IMG/VR virus record: IMGVR_UViG_3300036791_001056
Coordinates: 1-64,000 of that record
DNA length: 64,000 bases
Reading direction: 5' to 3' (one strand)
Origin: a virus
Shown: piece after piece, positions 2,807-43,799 of the stretch
Layout of the letters: each line of letters begins with the position of its first letter
Numbering within the stretch: position 1 is the stretch's first letter
Made by a program: the position numbers and the translations under genes
Notes under the pieces: model-generated
The model's database searches: none
What the model was told of the DNA's origin: nothing
What the model saw: the letters and a program-made list of their open reading frames with translations, nothing else

Positions 2807-2980
2807 CTCCCCCGGGCTGACGGCGCACTGAAGATGGTGCGCGAATGCTCGTTGACCTCAGCACCAGGTGCGTCCCGCCGGGCGGGGCGGAGTGGGCGAG
2901 ATGTCGATCATATCTCAGGAACCGCGGCTTGGCTACCTAGTCATTTGATATAGTCATATCATCTCAGCCACCCGGAGCCA

Positions 2981-3050
2981 TGCTGAGCTGAGCAGAGCAG
3001 ACCTTAGTCTAGTAAACAGCAGTTCAGCATAGATGAGCGCAGCAGCTCAG
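2981..3050 (+). repeat. (NNNAG)n pentamer-phased tract
   Basis: ctgag ctgag cagag cagac cttag tctag ... ttcag catag atgag cgcag. Confidence 0.75.
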
Positions 3051-3105
3051 AATGCGCTGGCGGCGGCCAGGCCTTCTTACCCAGCCGTCGCTGGCGCATT
3101 TCTTG
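3051..3105. terminator. 17-bp hairpin, probable terminator
   Basis: aatgcgctggcggcggc pairs with gccgtcgctggcgcatt (with G-U pairs), followed by tctt; separates two oppositely oriented pentamer tracts. Confidence 0.6.
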
Positions 3106-32414: not shown

Positions 32415-32443
32415 TTTACAAGCCCAGTGACTTGTGATAGAGT
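32415..32443 (+). promoter_or_regulatory. Promoter TTTACA-N17-TAGAGT
   Basis: Repeated consensus. Confidence 0.75.
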
Positions 32444-33013: not shown

Positions 33014-33084
33014 GCGGACGTCGTCCAACGGTAGGACAGTGGTCTCCAAAGCCACTTATGGGGGTTCGAATCCTCCCGGCCGTG
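33014..33084 (+). tRNA. tRNA-Trp(CCA)
   Basis: Cloverleaf; loop ctccaaa. Confidence 0.9.
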
Positions 33085-33092
33085 CGTTACAC

Positions 33093-33164
33093 GGGCTGGT
33101 AGCATAGCGGTAGTGCATCGCGTTCGCAGCGCGGTGACCCGGGTTCGAGTCCCGGCCGGTCCAC
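33093..33164 (+). tRNA. tRNA-Ala(CGC)
   Basis: Cloverleaf; G3:U70. Confidence 0.9.
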
Positions 33165-33393
33165 GACCCATCCTGCGGGAGTCATAATAGCGGGCGCAGC
33201 CATAGCGCGCGGCGGCGAAGCCGACGGGCAAAAGCGCGCAGGTGACCGGCGACCGTCTGCAGCGGAAGCGCCGGCACCGACTGGTCCGAAAGTTGCCGGC
33301 CATCCCAGGCGCGAGACGTCACCGGGACGCGGTAGGACCTCACATCCACCTGGGCACCCCTGCGCAATCCTGCTTGGTGCCCAGGGGGAACAT

Positions 33394-33466
33394 GGGCGGC
33401 TAGCTCTAACGGTAGAGCGACTCCCTTGCACGGAGAAGGTTCGGGGTTCAAGTCCCCGGCTGTCCA
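33394..33466 (+). tRNA. tRNA-Ala(TGC)
   Basis: Cloverleaf; loop cttgcac. Confidence 0.9.
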
Positions 33467-33611
33467 CGGCCGGAAGTCACGGGTTCGAGTCCCGTCTCAT
33501 CACTTGAGACGGCGTGATCACCTTTAGTGCTGATTAGTACGCATGGCGGGACATCAGCACGGCGAGGGGCGCGCTGGTGATGAGTACCTCAGCGGCAGAG
33601 GCCGGCACTCT

Positions 33612-33685
33612 GGGGCTGTAGCGCAGCTTGGTAGCGCAACTGCATGGCATGCAGTAGGTCGCGGGTTCAAATCCCGCCTGCTCCA
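33612..33685 (+). tRNA. tRNA-Ala(GGC)
   Basis: Cloverleaf; loop atggcat. Confidence 0.9.
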
Positions 33686-33792
33686 CCTGGGAGATGGCAA
33701 GTCTGCCGGCATGTGTAGAGGGCCGTGACGGGTACCTCAGCGGGGGTGATACCGAAGGCCGGGTGTCTCCGGCGGCAAACCAGCAGGTTCAG

Positions 33793-33865
33793 CGGAAACG
33801 AGGAAGACGGTTAATCCACCTGGCTGGGGGCCAGGTAACACCGGGTCCGACTCCCGGGTTTCCGA
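33793..33865 (+). tRNA. tRNA-Pro(GGG)
   Basis: cggaaac/gtttccg acceptor; loop ctggggg; T-loop TCCGA variant. Confidence 0.8.
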
Positions 33866-33884
33866 CGCAAGTTTAAAAACAGGG

Positions 33885-33959
33885 CGGAATGTAGCGCAGC
33901 TTGGTTAGCGCACCGCGTTCGGGACGCGGGGGCCGGCGGTTCAAGTCCGCCCATTCCGA
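33885..33959 (+). tRNA. tRNA-Pro(CGG)
   Basis: Cloverleaf. Confidence 0.92.
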
Positions 33960-33960
33960 C

Positions 33961-34347
33961 GTGGTTTACTACGGTGAACAACGACGCCAATATCAACGTG
34001 AACGACGCGCACAACTCCGGGCAGCGTGGTTCGCAGGTAAAATATGCGCGCACTGTGGTGCCACTGATAAACTTGAGCTAGATCACATTGATCCGGCAAC
34101 TAAGATCTCACACGTAATCTGGAGTTGGAGCGCAGAACGGCGTGATGCTGAGCTAGCTAAATGTCAAGCACTCTGTAAAGTGTGTCATCAGCGGAAATCA
34201 ACTGATGAATCACGTGCTTTGCAAGTCGGTTCAACCGTACCAGCCGATCGAAAAGAAAAGATCAGAGCGGCACTAAAAGAACGGTACAACACACCTGAAG
34301 GCCGAGCGCACATGCGCTGGGTCTCTCATCACCGGAGCATCGCGTAA
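33961..34347 (+). CDS. HNH endonuclease
   Basis: CAHC..LELDHIDP...CQALCKVCH; lower GC. Confidence 0.85.
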   Translation: MVYYGEQRRQYQRERRAQLRAAWFAGKICAHCGATDKLELDHIDPATKISHVIWSWSAERRDAELAKCQALCKVCHQRKSTDESRALQVGSTVPADRKEKIRAALKERYNTPEGRAHMRWVSHHRSIA

Positions 34348-34404
34348 GGGTCAGCGCGCCAGCTTTGGGAGCTGGGAGATGGGGTTCGAGTCCCTGTGTT
34401 CCGA
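34333..34404 (+). tRNA. tRNA-Pro(TGG)
   Basis: Cloverleaf; loop tttggga. Confidence 0.88.
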
Positions 34405-34660
34405 CGATGCGGGTTAGCTGCCCGCAGAGGTGATGCCGGAATAATCCCTACGCCCAGGCTGGGGGATAACGGCAGCGCGACGGCAGGCCGAGAGGTAACT
34501 TACCGGAGGCGCGGCTAGCGACCGCAACTGACGTGGGGTAGCCCCCGAACGCGCAGGCGTCTCGACTTACCGGCAACTCTGGGACGAGACGTGCGGGAAG
34601 CCAGTCCCGCTCACCGCTTCCCCACCAGTGTTTAACTAATAAGCGGCACTGGTGGGCGAT

Positions 34661-34732
34661 GGCACTCTAGCTGAGACGGATTAGCGCATGCCTGAAGAGC
34701 TTGAGAGGCCGGCTCGATACCGGCGGGTGCCA
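34661..34732 (+). tRNA. tRNA-Phe(GAA)
   Basis: Cloverleaf; loop ctgaaga. Confidence 0.85.
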
Positions 34733-34918
34733 CGTAAGCGTGCCAAGGTTAGCTGCTGAGTTTAATCTGGCCGGGTGAGTAGCGCTCCACTCGGTAAGTC
34801 TGGTTCGTGCATGGACCAGATCGCACGCTTCCCGGGGTACGGTGTCGTCACCCTGTGAGCCGAGTACCTGCAGGTCTCGGCGAAATTCAGGCTCTGGCAC
34901 GACGCGGCCCCGGGACTT

Positions 34919-34989
34919 GCGGATGTAGCTCAGTGGCAGAGCAGGTGCCTTCCAAGCATCCAACCGGGGTCCGATTCCCCGTATCCGCT
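34919..34989 (+). tRNA. tRNA-Gly(TCC)
   Basis: Cloverleaf. Confidence 0.9.
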
Positions 34990-34994
34990 CTTAC

Positions 34995-35066
34995 GCGCCG
35001 CTAGCTCAGCGGAAGAGCAGTGGACTCTTAATCCAACGGTCGGGGGTTCGATCCCCTCGCGGCGCA
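34995..35066 (+). tRNA. tRNA-Lys(CTT)
   Basis: Cloverleaf. Confidence 0.92.
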
Positions 35067-35077
35067 CCGAATTACAT

Positions 35078-35159
35078 ACCCGAGTGGTGGAATGGCAGAC
35101 ATGGCAGGCTCAAACCCTGCTGCCCTAGTGGTGTGCGGGTTCAATTCCCGCCTCGGGTA
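35078..35159 (+). tRNA. tRNA-Leu(CAA)
   Basis: Cloverleaf with variable arm. Confidence 0.9.
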
Positions 35160-35228
35160 CTTGCCGCGATCAGACTGGGGGTCACCGATCGCAGGCGAGG
35201 CAGCGGCTCTCCCCCCGAGCCGCTGCTC

Positions 35229-35305
35229 TCTACCGGGTGGGTTGCCGGCATCCCATCATGGCTCTGAACCATGGCCACGCAGGTTCGACTCCTGCTCCGG
35301 TAGCT
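35229..35305 (+). tRNA. tRNA-Gln(CTG)
   Basis: catgg-ctctgaa-ccatg; atypical D arm. Confidence 0.8.
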
Positions 35306-35366
35306 CTGGCGCTCACTGCTGTGACCGTCGTCTCGCTCACCTCCGATCCGCGTGGGCGCCAGTTAC

Positions 35367-35437
35367 GCCTCTTTAGCTCAGTGGCAGATCACCGCACTCG
35401 TAGCGCGGTGACCTGGGTCCGATTCCCAGTTGAGGCT
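35367..35437 (+). tRNA. tRNA-Thr(CGT)
   Basis: Cloverleaf. Confidence 0.85.
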
Positions 35438-35450
35438 CGGGTAAACCTAT

Positions 35451-35524
35451 GTTCTCGTAGCCCAACGGCAGGAGGCACGGCGTTGAGGTCGCCGGCAGTG
35501 CGAGTTCGAATCTCGCCGGGAACA
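35451..35524 (+). tRNA. tRNA-Leu(GAG), short variable region
   Basis: cggcg-ttgaggt-cgccg. Confidence 0.85.
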
Positions 35525-35751
35525 CGTAGACCTTTCGCCAGCTCACAGAGCTGTTATTAGGCGCGACAAACCAGCAGCTAGGTGGCAGTTGCTGCTGACA
35601 AATCGTGCGCTGCTGTCACCAGAAAGCGGAAGCTCACATGACTGGCCGGGAAGCTGGCTGCGCAGTAAGCGGTGAGCCTGTGTCAGGGAGCCAGCGCGCA
35701 TGCTCTGGGTTGAGTATGCACCACCCGTGTGATCTCCCGCTCACACGCTCC

Positions 35752-35820
35752 GCCCCTGGGTCCGGCGACCGTCGTCCCCCTGTAAGGGAAGATCGCTCGG
35801 CTCGACACCGAGCGGGGGCT
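35752..35820 (+). tRNA. tRNA-Thr(TGT), degenerate D arm
   Basis: gcccctg/cgggggc acceptor; loop cctgtaa. Confidence 0.65.
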
Positions 35821-35971
35821 CACAGCGTACGGCAAGCTTAATAAGAGCGAGATCAGGCATTGTACGGCTAAACGCGTCTCGTGCGACGTACGGTTACGTT
35901 CACAGCAATCGTCGCTAAAAAATTAAACTAGCCACAGCGGGATTCGCCGCCGTACGCTCATACTTTACTGC

Positions 35972-36042
35972 TCCCGGGTCGTCTAAGGGCAGGATGCGGC
36001 GCTTTGAACGCCGAAGATGCGGGTTCGAGTCCAGCCCCGGGA
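35972..36042 (+). tRNA. tRNA-Gln(TTG)
   Basis: Cloverleaf. Confidence 0.88.
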
Positions 36043-36213
36043 ACGCAAGTGTGGTACGCTGGCACGGTGCCTCGCCGCGGGAATACCACAGAGCGTCACC
36101 GGCAGCGCCGGAATCACCGGCCGATGAAGTCGGGTAAGCACGGCAGCGGGCACGACAGCAAGCTGCGGCTGCGCAAGCGCGAGCTCAACCAGCACATTCG
36201 GCCCCGTAATCAC

Positions 36214-36285
36214 GCCTCTTTAGCTCAGTGGCAGCGCACCGCCATGGTAAGGCGGAGGTCGTGGGTCCGATTCCCACTCGGGGCT
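36214..36285 (+). tRNA. tRNA-Thr(GGT)
   Basis: Cloverleaf. Confidence 0.85.
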
Positions 36286-36320
36286 CAAAGGCTGGACATT
36301 GAACTCCAGCCACCCCTCCC

Positions 36321-36393
36321 GCGGTTATAGCTCAGCAGGCAGAGCGCCACCTTCCCAAGGTGGATGTCGCCGGTTCGATCCCGGTTAGCCGCT
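36321..36393 (+). tRNA. tRNA-Gly(CCC)
   Basis: Cloverleaf. Confidence 0.9.
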
Positions 36394-36397
36394 CGAT

Positions 36398-36529
36398 GGC
36401 GAGTCGAAGACTTACCGGTTATCCCGAGCCAAAATTTCGGGAGTAGCTCAGTGGTAGAGCGCCGCCGCAAGGCGGAGGACGTGGGTTCGAACCCCACCTC
36501 TAACGCCGGTGATCATCATCACATTCGCC
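36398..36529 (+). ncRNA. Y-RNA-like Y0 with D/GNRA-stem/T tRNA-like module
   Basis: ggcgagt/attcgcc closing stem, GTCGAAG, CCGGTTA...CCGGT; same scaffold as the array at 40.9-41.9 kb. Confidence 0.75.
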
Positions 36530-36599
36530 TCACCCGAGTCACCAGCGCAGAGTGCAGATGAGGTGCGCATAGTTTCGTAGCTGCGCTGGTGCTCGCAGT

Positions 36600-36673
36600 G
36601 TGACTGTAGCTCAGTTGGTTAGAGCACCTGCTTGCCAAGTAGGAGGTCGCGGGTTCGAACCCCGTTAGTCACT
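36600..36673 (+). tRNA. tRNA-Gly(GCC)
   Basis: Cloverleaf. Confidence 0.9.
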
Positions 36674-36674
36674 C

Positions 36675-37223
36675 ATGACCAGACAGCGTGTATGGGTGGA
36701 TGAAGATTTGATCTCAGCAATATCATCATCTAGCACACTCGCTGAGGTATGTAGGAAGCTGAATCTCAAGCTAGCCGGTAGTACTTACGTAATGATGCGT
36801 AGGCACATCAAACGACTTGACGTTGACATTAGTCACTTTACTGGTCAAGCATGGATGCTTGGCCGAGTAAAAAGCGTGGAACAAGCACGATCTGATTTGC
36901 TGCCAAGAATGACGAAAAACTCCACGCCATTTGGCTATCGGCGGTTGATTGCCTCTGATTTTAAAGAAGCTAAATGTGAAGAATGTGAGCTAACTGAATG
37001 GCGTGGGCAGCCGCCACCATTGCAGCTCGATCACATCGATGGTGATCGAACGAACAATGTACTGGATAATCTGCGAATTTTGTGCGCAAACTGCCATATG
37101 CTTACAGAAACGTGGGGTTTTAAACGAAGACATGACGGCCTAGCCCAATCTGGCAGGAGGCACACGGCTCAGACCCGTGGATGTGTCGGTTCGAGTCCGA
37201 CGGTCGTCACGCAAGGAGAGTGA
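36675..37223 (+). CDS. HNH endonuclease
   Basis: CEEC..WRG..LQLDHIDGDRTNN..NLRILCANCH; lower GC. Confidence 0.9.
   Translation: MTRQRVWVDEDLISAISSSSTLAEVCRKLNLKLAGSTYVMMRRHIKRLDVDISHFTGQAWMLGRVKSVEQARSDLLPRMTKNSTPFGYRRLIASDFKEAKCEECELTEWRGQPPPLQLDHIDGDRTNNVLDNLRILCANCHMLTETWGFKRRHDGLAQSGRRHTAQTRGCVGSSPTVVTQGE
37134..37209 (+). tRNA. tRNA-Leu(CAG), short variable region
   Basis: cacgg-ctcagac-ccgtg. Confidence 0.85.
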
Positions 37224-37301
37224 ACCGGACAGGCGCGCCGGTCCTCGTTGCTACCGAGTGAGCGGTCGGAAGGCCGTGGGAATCATGTTCTCCGCTCTCC
37301 G
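37215..37301 (+). tRNA. tRNA-Ser(GCT), 8/4 fold
   Basis: 8-bp acceptor, 4-bp T stem, long variable arm, G73. Confidence 0.8.
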
Positions 37302-37429
37302 CGCCCGCGCGCCGCGCTCTAAGTCGCTCTGGTCGTACTCCACCCCGTCCTCTGGAGCGTATGGTGATCATCAGTATGTGGCGTCCCCACGTTGATAAAA
37401 TCCCGCTGAGTGCGGCGCGCGAGCTTAAT

Positions 37430-37515
37430 GGAAGATGAACCTGCCAGGCGGCAGGCACCGGCTGGAACCCGCGTGGGCGTCAACTGGCGCTGGGAATCGT
37501 GCTCTCCGTCTTCCG
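37430..37515 (+). tRNA. tRNA-Ser(GGA), 8/4 fold
   Basis: ggaagatg/cgtcttcc acceptor; loop ctggaac. Confidence 0.8.
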
Positions 37516-37541
37516 CGGCTTCACGGTCAGGTAATTCACAT

Positions 37542-37627
37542 GGAGAGTGAACCGCGCGGGCGCGCGGGCTCGCCTCGAAAGCGATGTGGCGTCAGTTGGC
37601 GCTGGGAATCGTGCTCTCCGCTCTCCG
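37542..37627 (+). tRNA. tRNA-Ser(CGA), 8/4 fold
   Basis: Loop ctcgaaa. Confidence 0.8.
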
Positions 37628-37734
37628 CGGCCTAACCACCTTTCGCGTGAGCTCTCACCGCGAAGCTGGCGGCCTAGGGAACCTAGCTGGTCAATGGTGC
37701 GGGTGCCAGCCAGCTCGCAGGTAGGGTTTAGGCG

Positions 37735-37805
37735 AGCATGGTCTAACAGAGCTGAGTACAGCGAACAGAAGCAGTGCGTAGTGAAGTATAGCGCAGATCA
37801 GTCAC
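37735..37805 (+). repeat. (NNNAG)n pentamer-phased tract
   Basis: cagag ctgag tacag cgaac agaag cagtg cgtag tgaag tatag cgcag atcag. Confidence 0.75.
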
Positions 37806-37806
37806 T

Positions 37807-37892
37807 GGAGAGTGAATTGAGCGGGAGCTCGAGCTCGCCTTGAAAGCGAAGCGGCGTCGCGAGGCGCTGAGGGTCAGGACCTCCATTCTCCG
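37807..37892 (+). tRNA. tRNA-Ser(TGA), 8/4 fold
   Basis: Loop cttgaaa; T stem gagg/cctc. Confidence 0.8.
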
Positions 37893-38021
37893 CTGTGCGA
37901 CGTGGTGTAGCAGATACGATCAAGAAATTAGCACGCTGGCGGCGCGAGATCCCGGGTGAGGGCATCATCACTGAGCCAGAAGGTCCGGTGGAGAATCGGG
38001 AATCTGGTCGTCAGCACTCAC

Positions 38022-38097
38022 TGCACGCGGTCATCTGGTTGGTGGATCCCGTCTGATAAGCGGGGTGTGCTGGGTTCGACTCCCAGGCGTGCAACCA
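38022..38097 (+). tRNA. tRNA-Ile(GAT)
   Basis: Cloverleaf; encoded CCA. Confidence 0.85.
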
Positions 38098-38098
38098 T

Positions 38099-38170
38099 GG
38101 CGAGATAGCTCAGCGGCAGAGCGCTCGGCTCATAACCGAGAGGGCGTGGGTTCGGTGCCCACTCTCGCTA
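38099..38170 (+). tRNA. tRNA-Met(CAT), elongator
   Basis: Cloverleaf. Confidence 0.85.
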
Positions 38171-38172
38171 CG

Positions 38173-38247
38173 CGGCCGGTAGCTCAGCCGGTTCAGAGCA
38201 GCGGACTCATAATCCGCCGGTCCTGGGTTCAAGTCCCAGCCGGCCGA
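38173..38247 (+). tRNA. tRNA-CAT (Ile2 or Met)
   Basis: gcgga-ctcataa-tccgc. Confidence 0.85.
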
Positions 38248-38305
38248 CACAGGAGGTCAGATGCCCGGTAAACAGGTGGTCGCGCGAATACAGCAGGCGT
38301 GACCG

Positions 38306-38377
38306 GCCCCGCTAGCGCAACGGCAGAGCGGCGGACTTTTAATCCGACAGTTCGGGGTTCGAGTCCCCGGCGGGGCA
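38306..38377 (+). tRNA. tRNA-Lys(TTT)
   Basis: Cloverleaf. Confidence 0.9.
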
Positions 38378-38379
38378 CG

Positions 38380-38585
38380 CTCAGAAAGAGCTGAGCTCAG
38401 ACTAGCTGGTATCAGTGAAGCAGTGCTAATCTCAGCGCAGCGCGGCATACCTCAGCTCAGTGCGATGGAGCATAGCAGCGAAAAGCTCAGGTCCCAGCGC
38501 ACCAAAGAGCAGCTTACCGCAGCTCAGCTGACGAGAGCAAAGATTAGGAAAGCCGAGATTAGCTTAGTTGTAACCTTAGCTCAGC
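38380..38585 (+). repeat. (NNNAG)n pentamer-phased tract between tRNAs
   Basis: ctgag ctcag actag ... gagag caaag attag gaaag ccgag attag cttag; resumes at 38665-38722. Confidence 0.88.
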
Positions 38586-38659
38586 GTGCCACTGGCGCAA
38601 TCGGACAGCGCTGCCGTCTTCTAAGCGGTTGGTTCCCGGTTCGAGTCCGGGGTGGCGCA
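38586..38659 (+). tRNA. tRNA-Arg(TCT)
   Basis: Cloverleaf. Confidence 0.88.
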
Positions 38660-38728
38660 CCTTGCGAAGCTAAGTGGAGTTAAGCGGTGCTTAGTCCAGC
38701 AGAGTAAAGTTAAGCGAAGTACTTATGC

Positions 38729-38800
38729 GCGCTGATAGTGCAGCGGATAGCACGGCGACCTCCTAAGTCGCAGGCCCGAGTCCGAATCTCGGTTGGCGCA
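38729..38800 (+). tRNA. tRNA-Arg(CCT)
   Basis: Cloverleaf. Confidence 0.88.
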
Positions 38801-38842
38801 CCCAGTAAGATGTGGTATAATTGTTAACAGTAGTCTCCGTGA

Positions 38843-38916
38843 GCTCCTATGGACAAAGCGGTTAAGTTGCCTGCCCCTCAAGCAGGAGATTCCCGGTTCG
38901 AATCCGGGTGGGAGCA
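38843..38916 (+). tRNA. tRNA-Glu(CTC)
   Basis: Cloverleaf. Confidence 0.9.
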
Positions 38917-38988
38917 CGCGCGGTAGTGTAACGGCAACATGCCGGGCTCATAACCCGGGTGATGCGGGTTCGAGTCCCGCCTGCGCAT
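38917..38988 (+). tRNA. tRNA-fMet(CAT)
   Basis: C1:A72 mismatch; GGG/CCC anticodon stem. Confidence 0.85.
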
Positions 38989-39003
38989 CGTTAGGTGATC
39001 AAC

Positions 39004-39075
39004 GGCCCCATCGTCTATGGGTTAGGATCGGCGGTTTTCACCCGCCGGAACGGAGTTCGACTCTCCGTGGGGCTG
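39004..39075 (+). tRNA. tRNA-Glu(TTC)
   Basis: Cloverleaf. Confidence 0.9.
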
Positions 39076-39076
39076 C

Positions 39077-39150
39077 AGCGGAGTGGAGCAGTTCGGTAGC
39101 TCGGTGGGCTCATAATCCACAGGTCCCGGGTTCAAATCCCGGCTCTGCCA
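39077..39150 (+). tRNA. tRNA-fMet-like (CAT), second copy
   Basis: 1:72 mismatch; TGGAGCAG..GGTAGCTCG D arm. Confidence 0.85.
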
Positions 39151-39196
39151 CGGGGACGGCTGGTTTCGTGTGGCCACTTGGCCAGCCGTCACTCAT

Positions 39197-39268
39197 TCCG
39201 GTCTGGCCAAACGGCAAGGCGCCGAGCTGTTAACTCGGACATTCGGGGTTCGACTCCCTGGACCGGAG
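39197..39268 (+). tRNA. tRNA-Asn(GTT)
   Basis: Cloverleaf. Confidence 0.92.
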
Positions 39269-39296
39269 CGGGTGGCCTCAGGCTGCCACCTGCCGA

Positions 39297-39368
39297 GCTG
39301 GCGTAGTGTATCGGTGTGCACGGCACCCCGTCAAGGTGCTAGGGCGAGTTCAACTCTCGTCGTCAGCG
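39297..39368 (+). tRNA. tRNA-Asp(GTC)
   Basis: Cloverleaf; G73. Confidence 0.85.
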
Positions 39369-39414
39369 CGATGCGCGGCAGCCGTGCCTGCATACCGTTG
39401 TCGCGCATCATTTT

Positions 39415-39486
39415 GCTCGAGTGGCTCAGCGGAAGAGCACCGCCCCGACACGGCGGAGGTCGCTGGTTCGATCCCAGCTTCGGGCA
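39415..39486 (+). tRNA. tRNA-Val(GAC)
   Basis: Cloverleaf. Confidence 0.9.
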
Positions 39487-39612
39487 CGCAGTTGTGCAGA
39501 GGGATTCTAGACAACTCCAGCGTGGTGCAAGTGCATACCCGGAGCAGCCAGCCGCAAGTCCACGCGCTCAGCCATCACGGGTGGGAGAGGTTGAGACCGC
39601 ACAATTGCCACG

Positions 39613-39684
39613 GTTCCCATGGTGAAACGGATATCATACCGGGCTACGAACCCGGAGGCCTCAGTTCGATTCTGGGTGGGAACA
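39613..39684 (+). tRNA. tRNA-Arg(ACG)
   Basis: Cloverleaf. Confidence 0.9.
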
Positions 39685-39685
39685 C

Positions 39686-39819
39686 GCTGCGGTGGTGTAA
39701 AGGGATCCAAGTGGGCGCCCGCCTGGTCCTATTCCGGCGGCCGGCATTCGCGAGGCCGGCGCAGGTGATGCATGCTGGCCATTAAGCCAGGAGTGGAGGT
39801 TCAAGTCCTCCCTGCAGCC
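39686..39819 (+). ncRNA. tRNA-like RNA with roughly 60-nt D-loop insertion
   Basis: Acceptor gctgcgg/ctgcagc, T arm ggagg-ttcaagt-cctcc, 6-nt anticodon-position loop cattaa. Confidence 0.65.
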
Positions 39820-39848
39820 CACTGTTTTCTAGGAATAGAGAAATAGAG

Positions 39849-40064
39849 ATGATAAGGCTATTTCTAATAATAGTCATCTGTAGCTATCGACTAATTCCAG
39901 TCCGTATTCGCAGGATCTGGTCGTTTGGGTGTTCGACAAGTTATCAGGGTCTGGTTGCAGTCCGGTCGACGCCTACAGCAGCAGCAGCTATCACAGAGTT
40001 CAGGAAGTTTGCCAGTCTTAGGCATGAAGGTGGCGGGGTTCCCAGCTTTGAGTGGGGAAAGTAA
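39849..40064 (+). CDS. Small low-GC ORF, weakly YidD-like
   Basis: N-terminal amphipathic helix ..VICSYRLIP and GCSTSY..AV. Confidence 0.35.
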   Translation: MIRLFLIIVICSYRLIPVRIRRIWSFGCSTSYQGLVAVRSTPTAAAAITEFRKFASLRHEGGGVPSFEWGK

Positions 40065-40082
40065 TCCCGTTCCCTGCATCAT

Positions 40083-40197
40083 ACCGTTGGTAGTGTAAAG
40101 GTAACACGCTCGAGTTCACGCTGCTGCCAGTTACCGGTTACCTGGCAGTAAGCGGGCTCCACAGAGATGACGGTTCAAGTCCGTTCCAGCGGTACCA
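40083..40197 (+). ncRNA. tRNA-like RNA with giant anticodon arm
   Basis: accgttgg/ccagcggt acceptor plus ACCA; normal D and T arms; long hairpin in place of anticodon arm. Confidence 0.7.
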
Positions 40198-40198
40198 A

Positions 40199-40270
40199 GC
40201 GTGGTTAGCTCAGCGGAAGAGCAGCTGGTCCACACCCAGCAGGCCGGGGGTTCGAGCCCCTCACTACGCA
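40199..40270 (+). tRNA. tRNA-Val(CAC)
   Basis: Cloverleaf. Confidence 0.88.
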
Positions 40271-40272
40271 CC

Positions 40273-40345
40273 GGGTCGTGATCCAAGTGGTTGAGGAAGC
40301 TGCCTGTGACGCAGTTATTAGCGGGTTCGAATCCCGCACGACCCT
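40273..40345 (+). tRNA. tRNA-His(GTG)
   Basis: Cloverleaf; G-1:C73. Confidence 0.85.
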
Positions 40346-40456
40346 CGGGGCTCGAGTCTCGTAGCCTAGTGCCTAGGACAGCCGATACTGCCAGAGAGAT
40401 GACGCGTCTAGCTCTCTGGTGAGTCGCTGGTGCGGGCATAACCCACGAGACCGCAC

Positions 40457-40535
40457 GCCAGATGTGGGCGACGGATCGCCCAGCTGACTGTAAATCAGCC
40501 GCCTCGGCAGCCCCCGTTCGACCCGGGGATCTGGC
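40457..40535 (+). tRNA. tRNA-Tyr(GTA)
   Basis: gctga-ctgtaaa-tcagc; variable arm; 6-bp D stem. Confidence 0.8.
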
Positions 40536-40603
40536 TCGCAGATGGTGACCTGCACAAGCTCCGCTCTCCGAGGTTGAATCCGTCGGCTCGGAGAGCGGAC
40601 CAC

Positions 40604-40673
40604 GCTTCCGGTAACGGACAGTACCCTCGTCCCTCCGAAGGATGGGTGCCCGGTTCGACTCCGGGCGGAAGTA
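40604..40673 (+). tRNA. tRNA-Arg(CCG)
   Basis: cgtcc-ctccgaa-ggatg; weak D arm. Confidence 0.75.
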
Positions 40674-40690
40674 CGGCGGCTGCGGAACTT

Positions 40691-40749
40691 GGGCGTAAGG
40701 TGGCTGGTTGCCACGGCGCGCGAGGCGGGTTCGATTCCCGCTGCGTCCA
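40691..40749 (+). ncRNA. Anticodon-less tRNA-Ala-like mini RNA
   Basis: gggcgta/tgcgtcc with G3:U70 and A73; D-like hairpin; perfect T arm. Confidence 0.6.
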
Positions 40750-40801
40750 CGCAGCAGCGACGTGGCTGTGAACTCGCATGCGCACCGCGCCGCTGCTCCA
40801 T

Positions 40802-40872
40802 CTCACCATGACCGAGAGGCGAGGTACGCGCCTGCAAAGCGCGGCACGCGGGTTCAAATCCCGCTGGTGAGT
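40802..40872 (+). tRNA. tRNA-Cys(GCA)
   Basis: Cloverleaf; U73. Confidence 0.9.
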
Positions 40873-40881
40873 CGGAACCTA

Positions 40882-40955
40882 GCACGGGTCGAAGCTGACC
40901 GGTTATCAGATCACATCTGGCCAAGAAATACCGGGAAGCGCTCACGCATCTGTGC
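40882..40955 (+). ncRNA. Y-RNA-like Y1 (minimal)
   Basis: gcacgggt/atctgtgc stem; GGGTCGAAG; CCGGTTAT..CCGG. Confidence 0.7.
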
Positions 40956-40966
40956 CCAGACCTCAA

Positions 40967-41038
40967 GCGTGGGTCGAATGACCGCCGGTTATCATCACGT
41001 TAGTTATGTCCGGTGATCACGTACTGCTGCATCCACGT
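40967..41038 (+). ncRNA. Y-RNA-like Y2 (minimal)
   Basis: gcgtgggt/atccacgt stem; same scaffold. Confidence 0.7.
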
Positions 41039-41047
41039 CAGCGTCAC

Positions 41048-41126
41048 CCACAGGGTCGAAGACAGCTGGGTTATCTGCGCCAGCAGGTCACCGTCTAACC
41101 CAGTTGCCACCTACATCATCCTGTGG
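41048..41126 (+). ncRNA. Y-RNA-like Y3 (minimal)
   Basis: ccacagggt/atcctgtgg stem; inner stem covaries (ctgggtta/taacccag). Confidence 0.7.
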
Positions 41127-41140
41127 TAGAGTTACTTACA

Positions 41141-41205
41141 TGAGCGGGTCGATGCTCACCGGTTACCGGTAAAGTGATCCGGTGAGCGCTCAACTCATCC
41201 GCTCA
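41141..41205 (+). ncRNA. Y-RNA-like Y4 (minimal)
   Basis: tgagcgggt/atccgctca stem. Confidence 0.7.
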
Positions 41206-41255
41206 CGCCCGTCACGGTCTGGTACAACTGAATTAGACTTCACCCCCCAAGTTTG

Positions 41256-41395
41256 CGGCGTGGGCGCGGGTCGAACGTCAGCCGGTTATCTTTCTGCAAA
41301 AAGGAAACAGTAGGTTCGATTCTTATCAGTCTCTTCGGAGGCTGGGTATGGCACCAGTAAACCCGGTTGCGATCATCACATCCGCGGCTGCGCCG
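41256..41395 (+). ncRNA. Y-RNA-like Y5, permuted tRNA module with GCA anticodon-like loop
   Basis: Order: anticodon hairpin, T arm, UUCG-capped acceptor stem, D-like arm. Confidence 0.75.
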
Positions 41396-41405
41396 GAGGC
41401 TTGGG

Positions 41406-41550
41406 TGGTCTGGTGGGGCGAAGTCACGTCGGTTATCTCTTTTGGGAAGAGGTAGTGCAGGTTCGATTCCTGCTCGGCCAGCTCACTGGCCGATAGTGTA
41501 ACGGCAGCACGCTAAACGTCCGGCAGGCATCATCATCTCCACCAGGACCA
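41406..41550 (+). ncRNA. Y-RNA-like Y6, permuted tRNA module with TGG anticodon-like loop
   Basis: Anticodon hairpin, T arm gcagg-ttcgatt-cctgc, closed acceptor stem, D arm. Confidence 0.8.
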
Positions 41551-41561
41551 GCCTCAGCTCG

Positions 41562-41683
41562 CAGAGCGGGCATGGGTCGACCACGTACCGGTTACCGAAG
41601 GTTCGACTCCTCCCGTCCCCACCTCACGGGGACGTGCCCTTGGGGGCACACCGGTTGTCATCACTACATCCGTGCCCGCTCTG
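41562..41683 (+). ncRNA. Y-RNA-like Y7 (T-acceptor-D module)
   Basis: 16-bp closing stem; T arm, closed acceptor, D-like hairpin. Confidence 0.75.
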
Positions 41684-41706
41684 GAGGCTGAATACTTCTG
41701 ATGTGA

Positions 41707-41861
41707 CCTGACGGGTCGAAGTTGCGCCGGTTACCTTCATTTAATCTGGAAGTCGTGGGTTCGAGTCCCGCTCCTGGTCTGTTATCAGACTGGGATAGCT
41801 CAGTGGGTAGAGCACCAGACCGGCAACAGTCGCCGGTGCACGGCACCAAGCATCTGTCAGG
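41707..41861 (+). ncRNA. YrlA-type Y RNA Y8
   Basis: GGGTCGAAG; T arm, closed acceptor, D arm, and ccaga/tctgg anticodon stem linking to the Ro-binding helix. Confidence 0.85.
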
Positions 41862-41914
41862 CCAGCACTTACATGCGAGAGCATCCGCCGTGAGGCGGGT
41901 CGATCTGATGGGAG

Positions 41915-43594
41915 ATGATCGTCATGACGAGTCGTGACGCGCTCGCCGGGTTCAACCCGGCAGTCACGCCGCAGACCCAGCCAGCTCCGGGACGCACCGA
42001 CATGGTGAAGGGACCTGCTGGCGGGTACGGCTTCCAGAAGGACCGGTGGAACCAGCTCGAGGACTTCTTGATTCTCGGGACCACCGGCGGCAGCTACTAC
42101 CTCGGCCAGGACCAGCTGACTCAGCAGAACGTGAGCGTGGTCATCGAGCTAGCCAAGTCGCACGGTGCGCAGCTCGTGCAGCTCGTGGTTGAAATTTCAA
42201 CCTCAGTCCCACCGCGCGCTCCGAAGAACCGGGGATGCCTGTACGCGCTGGCTGCCGCATCAGCGTTCGGTGACCCAGCTGCTGTGCAGGCCGTCAAGGC
42301 GGCGCTGCCTCAAGTCGCGCGGACCACCGATCACCTGGCTGCGTTCTTCGGCTACCGCAAGCTGCTGAAGAGCAAGACCACCGCGCGTGGGACGTCACCG
42401 GTCGCTGGTCGCGCCTACCGCTCGGCGCTCGCTGCGTGGTTCACGGCGAGCGACGTCAATGACGTCGCGTTCCGGGCCTGCAAGGCCCGCCAGCGGAAGA
42501 CTCCGGCCGGCGAGGCGTTCGACCTGCGGGACGCGATCCGCATGGCGCACCCGGCGAGCGACACGCCCGAGCGGCAGCTGCTCTTCCGGTGGCTGGCCGG
42601 CAAGGCCGATGACGCAGAGGCAGCGCGGGTGCTGCCGGCGGTTGACAACTTCATCACGGCGCAGGCCGTGAAGACTCCGGCTGAGGCGATCCGCGTGGTT
42701 ACCGACCGGCGCGTTCCCTGGGAGTTCTTGCCCTCCGCTGTCCTCGCAGACAGGGGGGTGTGGGAGGCGCTCACCGAGACCATCGGCGTGACAGCGCTGA
42801 TCCGGAACCTGGCGCGAATGACCCGCATCGGGACTCTCGCTCCATTCGCCGCGGCCAACGTTACGGTGATCCGGCGGCTCACCAGCGCAGAGGCACTGGC
42901 GAGGGGGCGCATTCACCCGATGGACGTGTACCTCGCGCTGCGGGTCTACGCGGCCGGCACTAGCCAGCCGAATCCCAAGGCTGAGCGCTCCACCTGGACT
43001 CCGGTCCCGGAGATCCTCGATGCGCTCGAGGTCGCGTACGACCTCAGCCACGGCCACGTGCAGCCGTCAGGTAAGAAGTTCGTCCTCGCGGTAGACTCAT
43101 CAGGCTCGATGACGTATGGCCACGTGTCATTCACCGGTGCTAACCTGGGTCAGGCATATCACGTCGCATCAGCCATCGCTACGATGATTAAGCGCATTGA
43201 AGGCGCGAACGTCCACGTCGTTGATGTAGACACGGCAGTCCGGAACTCACGGATCACCCCACGCACCAACCTGCGCGAGATCTCATCGTGGCGAGCTAGT
43301 GGCGGAGGCACTGACCTCTCGCTGCCCATGACGTACGCGATGCAGTACGATCTCCGGGTCGACGGCTTCGCGCTGCTCACGGACAACGCGACGTGGGCCG
43401 GGCACATTCACCCATTCCAGGCGCTCGAGCAGTACCGCCAGCGGTACAACCCCGGCGCGCGGTTCGTGGACATCAGCATGGTGCCTTCCGGGTTCAGCGT
43501 CGCTGATCCCAAGCATGAGGGCGTGATCAACATGACCGGGATGGACGCGTCACTGCCCGTGGCGCTGGCCGGGTACCTCCGTGCTGCGGGGTGA
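41915..43594 (+). CDS. Ro60/Rsr TROVE-domain RNA-binding protein
   Basis: AGGYGF..D.WNQLEDFLILGTTGGSYY, ALIRNLARMT, RIHP, vWA domain DSSGSM/GGTD/TDN; likely start at 41924. Confidence 0.93.
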   Translation: MIVMTSRDALAGFNPAVTPQTQPAPGRTDMVKGPAGGYGFQKDRWNQLEDFLILGTTGGSYYLGQDQLTQQNVSVVIELAKSHGAQLVQLVVEISTSVPPRAPKNRGCLYALAAASAFGDPAAVQAVKAALPQVARTTDHLAAFFGYRKLLKSKTTARGTSPVAGRAYRSALAAWFTASDVNDVAFRACKARQRKTPAGEAFDLRDAIRMAHPASDTPERQLLFRWLAGKADDAEAARVLPAVDNFITAQAVKTPAEAIRVVTDRRVPWEFLPSAVLADRGVWEALTETIGVTALIRNLARMTRIGTLAPFAAANVTVIRRLTSAEALARGRIHPMDVYLALRVYAAGTSQPNPKAERSTWTPVPEILDALEVAYDLSHGHVQPSGKKFVLAVDSSGSMTYGHVSFTGANLGQAYHVASAIATMIKRIEGANVHVVDVDTAVRNSRITPRTNLREISSWRASGGGTDLSLPMTYAMQYDLRVDGFALLTDNATWAGHIHPFQALEQYRQRYNPGARFVDISMVPSGFSVADPKHEGVINMTGMDASLPVALAGYLRAAG

Positions 43595-43770: not shown

Positions 43771-43799
43771 TTTACATCGTGATGATGATGTGGTAGAGT
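43771..43799 (+). promoter_or_regulatory. Promoter TTTACA-N17-TAGAGT
   Basis: Repeated consensus plus GAGGAACGGAGG leader. Confidence 0.75.

Follow-up and report, generated by a model that had tools for sequence, protein, structure and literature searches.

A probable expanded Y RNA gene array upstream of Ro60 in a large actinophage

How many Y RNA genes can accompany a single Ro60 gene, and what would so many RNAs do? Ro60 binds the stem of a Y RNA, and the variable module of the RNA tethers partners such as PNPase. The question is raised by IMG/VR virus record IMGVR_UViG_3300036791_001056, a soil phage genome of 146,953 bp rated complete, whose first 64 kb (here denoted the window) we analysed. 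Upstream of a Ro60 (Rsr) gene in this window, a first inspection of the letters alone (the sequence-only reading) had noticed eight consecutive units sharing one scaffold and had proposed that a constant Ro60-binding handle carries exchangeable modules. Our analysis indicates that this is, with good probability, a genuine expanded Y RNA gene array of the canonical Ro60/Y RNA system (Rsr with YrlA/YrlB-type RNAs) in a large actinophage. With a ninth unit further upstream the set is the largest found here, and it is an expansion of a common arrangement, not a new system.

A strict 5' pattern (GG[GT]CGA, 4-12 nt, [CTG][CG]GGTTA[CT]) matches eight times in the 64 kb, always on the plus strand, between 40887 and 41734. 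A unit scanner combining a looser 5' motif with a closing helix (5 bp or more) whose anchor is a 3' (C/T)AT(C/T) recovered all eight proposed units (Y1-Y8, 65-155 nt) at 40882-41861; it gave no unit on the minus strand and a mean of 0.38 matches in shuffled windows. One additional match, at 39928 with a 5-bp helix, is weak and probably false positive. Each of Y1-Y8 folds into a closing stem, an internal loop, a second stem and a cargo that ranges from ~16 nt (Y4) to ~100 nt (Y8). The closing helix of the handle ends in GG; GUCGAA then forms the 5' side and CA(Y)AUC(C/U) the 3' side, and a second helix, with CGG/CCG as its closing pairs, leads into UUAY. The nine closing stems, including that of the distant unit Y0, all differ in sequence and all pair, as had been noticed for the eight.

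To describe the handle quantitatively, we aligned 50 minimal units, four from the window (Y1-Y4) and 46 from other loci. Over the two helices 94.4% of cells are paired, against 81.3% after column shuffling and at most 50% when the partners are slid. Double-sided changes occupy 120 cells where 31.7 are expected, 11 pairs change on both sides, and none of 500 shuffles reaches any of the observed measures. The alignment therefore gives strong support to covariation of the handle helices, across paralogs and across related loci, which the sequence-only reading had anticipated. A covariance model of the handle built from this alignment (R1) finds six of the eight array units (Y1-Y5 and Y7) at 32-54 bits, with E values of 4e-12 to 2e-6, and in addition Y0. 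R1 misses Y6 and Y8 even with filters off, their ~100-nt cargo being too long to bridge; these two are supported instead by closing helices of 9 and 8 bp and by matches to the Rfam YrlA model. A minus-strand R1 match at 40455-40529 is weak (13.3 bits, E 0.28) and was disregarded. Applied to 132 related loci that we fetched, R1 gave 237 matches in 95 loci, every one on the strand of Ro60 and almost always immediately upstream of it. The folds, the covariation and the R1 matches together uphold the proposal of a constant handle with variable modules at a Ro60 locus.

Along the array, which lies entirely on the plus strand, four minimal units (Y1-Y4) are followed by Y5 and Y6, a degenerate Y7 and a YrlA-type Y8. 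Y1 (40882..40955, 74 nt; R1 48.5 bits), Y2 (40967..41038, 72 nt; 44.8 bits) and Y3 (41048..41126, 79 nt, with the motif variant TGGGTTAT; 36.7 bits) are each supported by pattern, fold and scanner, and Y4 (41141..41205; 53.8 bits), in which GUCGAU replaces GUCGAA, is the smallest unit at 65 nt. None of the four carries tRNA-like elements; their description as minimal holds. Pairwise identity among Y1-Y4 is 39-52%, no closer than to foreign units. This excludes recent tandem duplication as their source and indicates that the array expanded long ago, each copy keeping its helices.

The larger units carry parts of a tRNA after the handle. Y5 (41265..41386, with an outer stem extending to ~41256-41395; R1 51.0 bits) has an anticodon-like hairpin with the loop CUGCAAA, a weak T arm, an acceptor-like hairpin and a degenerate D region. 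Y6 (41409..41546, outer stem to ~41396-41555; Rfam YrlA 24.4 bits), whose 5' motif is the variant GGGGCGAA, has an anticodon-like hairpin with the loop UUUGGGA, a T arm, an 8-bp acceptor hairpin and a D arm. ARAGORN reports a tRNA-Pro(tgg) at 41406-41482, a false call on Y6 in which handle bases serve as the acceptor stem. Y7 (41562..41683; 14-bp closing stem, R1 32.2 bits, fold z -4.6) contains a T-arm-like hairpin with one mismatch, an acceptor-like hairpin, and a GC hairpin replacing the D arm. Y8 (41707..41861), next to Ro60, is of the canonical YrlA type: an anticodon-position stem CUGG/CCAG is followed by a T arm, a closed acceptor stem and a D arm, and the unit matches the Rfam YrlA model over its full length (41.6 bits, E 2.3e-7). 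Y7 and Y8 had both been called YrlA-like, which is correct for Y8 and only partly so for Y7, with its mismatched T arm and missing D arm. A 'Lys-like' loop considered in Y8 was rejected, as its bases fall in an internal loop of the YrlA alignment.

The ninth unit, Y0 (36398..36529, plus strand), was detected by R1 at 28.6 bits (E 2.3e-5), and its predicted fold has a minimum free energy of -56.7 kcal/mol (z -4.0). It is located within the tRNA cluster between tRNA-Gly(ccc) and tRNA-Gly(gcc), 4.4 kb 5' of the array and 5.4 kb 5' of Ro60. Its handle reads GAGUCGAA ... CAUUCGCC, a compensatory change from G-C to A-U in an otherwise invariant pair, and the same variant recurs in the related loci L095 and L002. 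The cargo comprises a hairpin and then a tRNA body in normal order, with a D arm, an anticodon-position stem bearing a GCAA tetraloop and a T arm; a partial Rfam tRNA match lies within it at 36441-36500.

The gene that follows the array encodes a canonical, intact Ro60, as judged from its predicted protein of 556 amino acids (41924..43594, plus strand), which matches Pfam TROVE (3.8e-18), vWA_Ro60 (9.1e-35) and PHROG 850, and along its full length the structures of Deinococcus Rsr (PDB 2NVO, 1.7e-71) and Xenopus Ro60 (1YVP, 2.8e-62). The open reading frame also opens at ATG 41915; ATG 41924 is probably the true start, because the database copy has 556 amino acids and GGGAGA lies 8 nt upstream. 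With this start the gap between Y8 and Ro60 is 62 nt, so that the array does end just upstream of the gene, though not at the ~50 nt given by the sequence-only reading. The protein shares 56-60% identity with chromosomal Ro60 of Streptosporangiales and 60-75% with metagenomic proteins, the nearest being P0002 (75%) and P0003 (67%), and only 32-37% with Ro60 of cultured phages.

Are the units Y RNAs in the established sense? A bacterial Y RNA adjoins rsr on the same strand and carries a 5' GNCGAAN0-1G, and YrlA has in addition a tRNA-like domain after a conserved YUAY; in 254 bacteria and 22 phages YrlA lies beside rsr and shares its strand, and in M. smegmatis Northern blots show YrlA and YrlB as discrete RNAs, which co-immunoprecipitate with Rsr (PMC4201824). 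In the window, Y1-Y8 lie 62-1042 nt upstream of the Ro60 start on its strand, within the ~4 kb taken as proximity. GNCGAAN0-1G is exact in seven of the nine units (Y0, Y1, Y2, Y3, Y5, Y6 and Y8), UUAY is present in all nine, and the 5' and 3' ends form a stem, backed by covariation, with the Ro60-binding motif in its internal loop. Y8 aligns to all 114 positions of Rfam YrlA (RF02553), including the tRNA-like domain; of the others, Y6 has T arm, acceptor hairpin and D arm and Y5 and Y7 only part of this set. As Y1-Y4 lack tRNA-like elements, they would be YrlB-like minimal Y RNAs and not YrlA. None of the tRNA-like units has the open acceptor stem and free 3' end of a tRNA: the acceptor stem of Y5-Y8 is closed by a loop, and in Y0 the handle takes its place.

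Several points weigh against the assignment. Y4 (GUCGAUG) and Y7 (GUCGACC) are each one base off the published GNCGAA motif. Pairing of the inner five pairs of helix 1 is partly circular, since the scanner selected on them; helix 2 and the outer pairs of helix 1 played no part in the selection. The covariation is pooled over units from relatives whose Ro60 is at most 65% identical, and is not a measure per orthologous unit. The phage encodes neither RtcB nor a CCA-adding enzyme, hence there is no obvious effector in its genome. For this phage, transcripts, processing and Ro60 binding are predicted from sequence. Finally, the Rfam YrlA search suggested by the sequence-only reading did find Y8 (41.6 bits) and Y6 (24.4 bits), yet no unit reaches the gathering score of 69 bits, at which Rfam reports tRNAs only in the window and in 20 related loci. 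This threshold is uninformative for actinobacteria, because every actinobacterial or mycobacteriophage locus tested also falls below it: Nonomuraea, Streptosporangium and mycobacteriophage loci score only 36-43 bits with the YrlA model (for example 42.9 in L020 and 37.4 in mycobacteriophage JayJay).

The related loci place the array in a lineage. Searches of cultured phages by megablast and blastn gave no relative of the array, and a single-protein IMG/VR search no match; the relatives came from an alignment query. Chromosomal loci (L012-L090, from Nonomuraea, Streptosporangium, Sphaerisporangium, Actinomadura and others) carry ordered arrays of up to four units within ~630 nt, with four units as the typical form in Streptosporangiales. 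By a stricter scan, 19, 20, 38, 20 and 17 loci have zero, one, two, three and four units, respectively. In Nonomuraea thailandensis, unit 1 is a 77-nt minimal unit with a 5-bp/7-nt hairpin, units 2 and 3 (~135 nt) have the 5-bp/7-nt hairpin, a T arm, a closed acceptor stem and a D arm, and unit 4, adjoining Ro60, is a canonical YrlA. The order of modules (minimal, hairpin-bearing tRNA-like, canonical YrlA beside Ro60) is thus common to phage and chromosomal arrays. ARAGORN makes miscalls in the chromosomal arrays as well, a tRNA-Glu(ctc) in L020 (array e.g. L020:2378-2955) and a tRNA-Phe(gaa) in L024.

About 25 metagenomic loci share the synteny of the window, in which a tRNA cluster with Arg(ccg) and Cys(gca) as its last genes is followed by Y units and Ro60; the distance from the last tRNA to Ro60 is 117-665 nt in these loci and 1042 nt in the window. 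Phage-like relatives with this synteny have 3-6 units. In a Ro60 tree (FastTree, SH-like support), all 21 rows linked to tRNA arrays fall within a clade of 29 rows (support 86) that sits among Streptosporangiaceae and Thermomonosporaceae branches, and the window Ro60 groups with L093, L095 and L002 (support 100). These three loci have 3-4 adjacent units and 0-2 within their tRNA clusters; handle units within relatives' clusters lie at 471-537 and 2293-2371 in L095 and at 1527-1601 in L002. The carrier is probably a large actinophage whose host lineage lies in or near Streptosporangiaceae.

Further phages were reached by scanning IMG/VR for the exact pattern GGGTCGAA ... CGGTTAY, which among the matches listed gave mostly single chance hits and led to G001 and G002. 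G001, a complete 109-kb IMG/VR phage (L266, G001:C1:43823-46923), has about six units before Ro60, five matched by R1 and one seen by eye, alternating with tRNA-Val(tac), tRNA-Ala(tgc) and tRNA-Gly(gcc). In cultured phages we count about 1-3 units: JayJay shows two R1 matches and one YrlA match, Farewell two units and StarPlatinum about two. Just 5' of their Ro-like genes, StarPlatinum gene 132 (L275 3124-3459) and Farewell gene 35 (L135 2349-2486) are annotated as 'hypothetical protein', and R1 or YrlA matches lie just upstream of these open reading frames (StarPlatinum 2910-3097, Farewell 2150-2329); both genes stand at the Y RNA position and may be misannotations. The one or two neighbouring Y RNAs that had been taken as the baseline are therefore the wrong expectation for this lineage, where chromosomal arrays reach four units and other phages 3-6. 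Compared with the four-unit chromosomal type the present array is about two-fold larger, and its novelty is in size and composition, not in kind.

Comparison with described systems agrees with this placement. Like YrlA and YrlB of S. Typhimurium and M. smegmatis (PMC4201824; RF02553), the units adjoin rsr on the same strand and have a 5' GNCGAA(N)G, an end-pairing stem with an internal loop and UUAY before the variable region, and Y8 has a full YrlA domain; unlike them, they number nine phage genes instead of one or two, four lack a tRNA-like domain, and Y5 and Y6 carry a 5-bp/7-nt anticodon-like hairpin where YrlA has the 'V' stem-loop. The chromosomal arrays of Streptosporangiales, whose Ro60 is 56-60% identical, share the handle with both helices, the module order and a leader hairpin (see below), but stop at four units and adjoin no tRNA cluster; the phage adds to them four minimal units in place of one, an extra degenerate tRNA-like unit and the remote ninth unit. 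Mycobacteriophages (PMC4201824) and phiLo with its Yrl1 and Yrl2 (PMC12135203) also have a phage Ro60 with Y RNA genes just upstream and a CGAA internal loop between two stems; they have about 1-3 units, and the window Ro60 belongs to a separate clade linked to tRNA clusters. In G001, Ro60 is likewise preceded by units with a GGGTCGAA ... GGTTAY handle, which are fewer, alternate with tRNAs and lie in a genome of far lower GC content. The Rsr-Yrn1-PNPase complex of Deinococcus radiodurans (RYPER) is a model for a Y RNA tethering the Ro60 ring to an exoribonuclease, and resembles the present case in that several Rsr-bound RNAs are encoded upstream of rsr and the window Ro60 matches 2NVO over its full length; the tRNA-like parts of Yrn1 are arranged differently.

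The sequence-only reading had singled out Y5 and Y6 as anticodon-bearing. Their hairpins have 5 bp and 7 nt, with loops identical at seven of seven positions to those of the phage's own tRNA-Cys (Y5) and tRNA-Pro(UGG) (Y6). This part is borne out; the trait is family-wide, and not special to the phage. A T arm is present in 177 distinct units, and in 118 of these a 5-bp/7-nt hairpin precedes the T stem at 3-7 nt, a tRNA-like spacing. Of these 118 hairpins, 79 (67%) combine U at the second loop position with a purine at the sixth, and the loop reads C-U-NNN-A-A in at least 48 (41%), where the middle triplet takes at least 28 forms; for 9,584 chance hairpins in Ro60 reading frames the corresponding values are 7.4% and 0.03%. 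Minimal units of Nonomuraea favour CUG-N-AAA loops. Judged from these sequences, a hairpin after UUAY that mimics an anticodon stem-loop is a trait of the whole family of ~240 units from the window and loci L002-L133. We found no description of anticodon-loop mimicry in Y RNAs in the literature searched, whose coverage was incomplete. The same element has been termed a poorly conserved 'V' stem-loop (PMC4201824), while Salmonella YrlA is stated to lack an anticodon loop and YrlA has been proposed to derive from dimeric tRNA transcripts (bioRxiv 10.1101/312249). An anticodon arm retained from the first tRNA would fit this proposal.

A more far-reaching reading, which we put forward tentatively and consider rather unlikely, is that the array encodes multiplexed, Ro60-mounted mimics of tRNAs and anticodon stem-loops. 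The hairpin would then be a true anticodon-arm mimic (5-bp stem, 7-nt loop, C32-U33, three free positions, A37-A38) that brings Ro60 and a recruited nuclease to proteins that read anticodon loops, or that shields tRNAs, and the units would have multiplied to cover more targets. If so, the readers could be tRNA-cleaving toxins, modification enzymes or synthetases, and the phage would cover more of them while 38 tRNAs of its own flood the cell. Such proteins would then be a candidate class of effectors for YrlA-type RNAs, and the reading agrees with the dimeric-tRNA origin.

The mechanism that we consider for the Y RNA array as such follows the described complexes. The Ro60 of the Thermus phage phiLo binds two upstream Yrl RNAs and forms a complex with host PNPase in vitro (PMC12135203). 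In the actinophage, the units would be transcribed with or after the tRNA cluster and the transcript cut into discrete RNAs of ~65-155 nt, each of which would dock through its handle on the outer surface of the phage Ro60 ring. Mixed particles would result, in which the variable modules may tether Ro60 to different partners, such as host PNPase (as in RYPER and phiLo) or proteins recognising the tRNA elbow or the anticodon loop. Free Ro60 could repress its own translation through a handle-like hairpin in its leader. The phage array itself may derive from a host-type array by old duplications.

Could the units instead be mainly decoys, which the sequence-only reading had put forward as a possible role beside the recruitment of enzymes? 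The tRNA-like and anticodon-loop RNAs would soak up host anticodon nucleases or other tRNA-binding defence proteins, or titrate host Ro60, and the phage Ro60 would only stabilise them. Anticodon-loop-specific tRNA-cleaving toxins are common in actinobacteria, the loops of Y5 and Y6 match those of two phage tRNAs, the array is joined to a tRNA cluster (38 tRNAs in the window) throughout a phage clade, and the handle is the same as in the chromosomal Streptosporangiales loci, all of which would suit such a role. Chromosomal Y RNAs of bacteria carry the same hairpins, though, which disfavours an origin purely as a phage counter-defence; orthologs differ in their 'anticodon' triplet; and the genes adjoining the locus are uninformative, with no defence or anti-defence gene identified among them. 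We regard the decoy explanation as unlikely.

The leader of Ro60 bears on a second alternative. A hairpin, CAUCCGCC-GUGA-GGCGGGUCGA (41882..41903, plus strand), lies 6 nt 5' of the ribosome-binding site GGGAGA (41910-41915) and shows the two strands of the conserved Y RNA handle helix in exchanged order. Related Ro60 leaders (in L002-L132) have the form CA(Y)A-UCCGCC, a loop of 3-6 nt, GGCGGGUCGAA, then GGAG 4-12 nt further on, then ATG. The hairpin is present in most of 116 distinct related leaders, chromosomal as well as phage, of which 82 pass a loose detector and ~75 show the canonical stem; between leaders the stem sequence hardly changes, whereas the loop does. From this conservation the hairpin is a candidate autoregulatory operator of Ro60. 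One might extend this and read the entire region as one long structured 5' leader of the Ro60 mRNA, a string of Ro60-binding sites that buffers or autoregulates Ro60 in cis. The widespread hairpin at the ribosome-binding site would agree with that, as would the very short spacers (8-14 nt around Y1-Y4) and our failure to find intrinsic terminators between the units. Against it, each unit closes on itself by pairing of its 5' and 3' ends, like free Y RNAs, their homologues YrlA and YrlB of M. smegmatis appear as discrete species on Northern blots (PMC4201824), Y0 lies 4.4 kb away among tRNAs, and the G001 units alternate with tRNA genes, which must be excised. A single long leader is very unlikely.

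That the units are decaying tRNA-derived repeats or pseudogenes without a function of their own, as their T arms, D arms and anticodon-like hairpins, their location at the end of a tRNA cluster and the ARAGORN call on one of them might suggest, is extremely improbable, given that the non-tRNA handle is their most conserved part, covaries and is tied to Ro60 in strand and position (95 of 132 loci by R1), that four minimal units have no tRNA parts, and that paralogs as old as 39-52% identity all keep both helices.

The surroundings of the array are those of a phage: the window encodes a primase/helicase, a DNA polymerase and a helicase, all phage replication genes. Upstream lies the tRNA gene cluster (33014..40873, plus strand) with its 38 ARAGORN calls, the last two genes of which are tRNA-Arg(ccg) and tRNA-Cys(gca) and which ends 8 nt 5' of Y1; it is the probable co-transcription unit of the Y array. 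Over 33.0-41.5 kb ARAGORN makes 39 tRNA calls, 33 of them backed by Rfam. An open reading frame for an HNH endonuclease (182 amino acids) lies within the cluster at 36675-37223. The promoter-like sequence TTTACA-17 nt-TAGAGT, with TG before the -10 hexamer, occurs at 32415-32443, 5' of the tRNA cluster, and at 43771-43799, just 3' of Ro60 and ahead of a DUF932 gene. Within the array, a promoter-like TTGCCA-17 nt-TAGAGT at 41104-41132, a consensus match only, ends 9 nt 5' of Y4. An inter-unit motif, CGTCA-6 nt-TGGTACA (41210..41226, plus strand), occurs once in the window where 0.01 matches are expected; as CGTCA, 6-9 nt, TGGTAYA it recurs in the Y arrays of L093 and L095, and with AGTCA in L002. 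It was rejected as a sigma-70 promoter, since the spacing to -35-like hexamers is inconsistent between relatives.

Ro60 and Y RNAs form a conserved RNA-surveillance particle. The loci compared here indicate that actinobacterial Ro60 genes normally come with ordered arrays of up to four Y RNA genes, and that one phage clade fuses such an array to a tRNA cluster and extends it to as many as nine; arrays so ordered and expanded suggest that a single Ro60 may be programmed by many interchangeable RNAs. Covariation in the large comparative set of ~240 units defines the Ro60-binding handle, the family-wide mimicry of anticodon loops points toward anticodon-reading proteins as effectors, and the handle-like hairpin conserved at the Ro60 ribosome-binding site is a candidate autoregulatory switch, open to direct test. 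The locus leaves the general understanding of Ro60 unchanged; its value is that of a rich and tractable variant.

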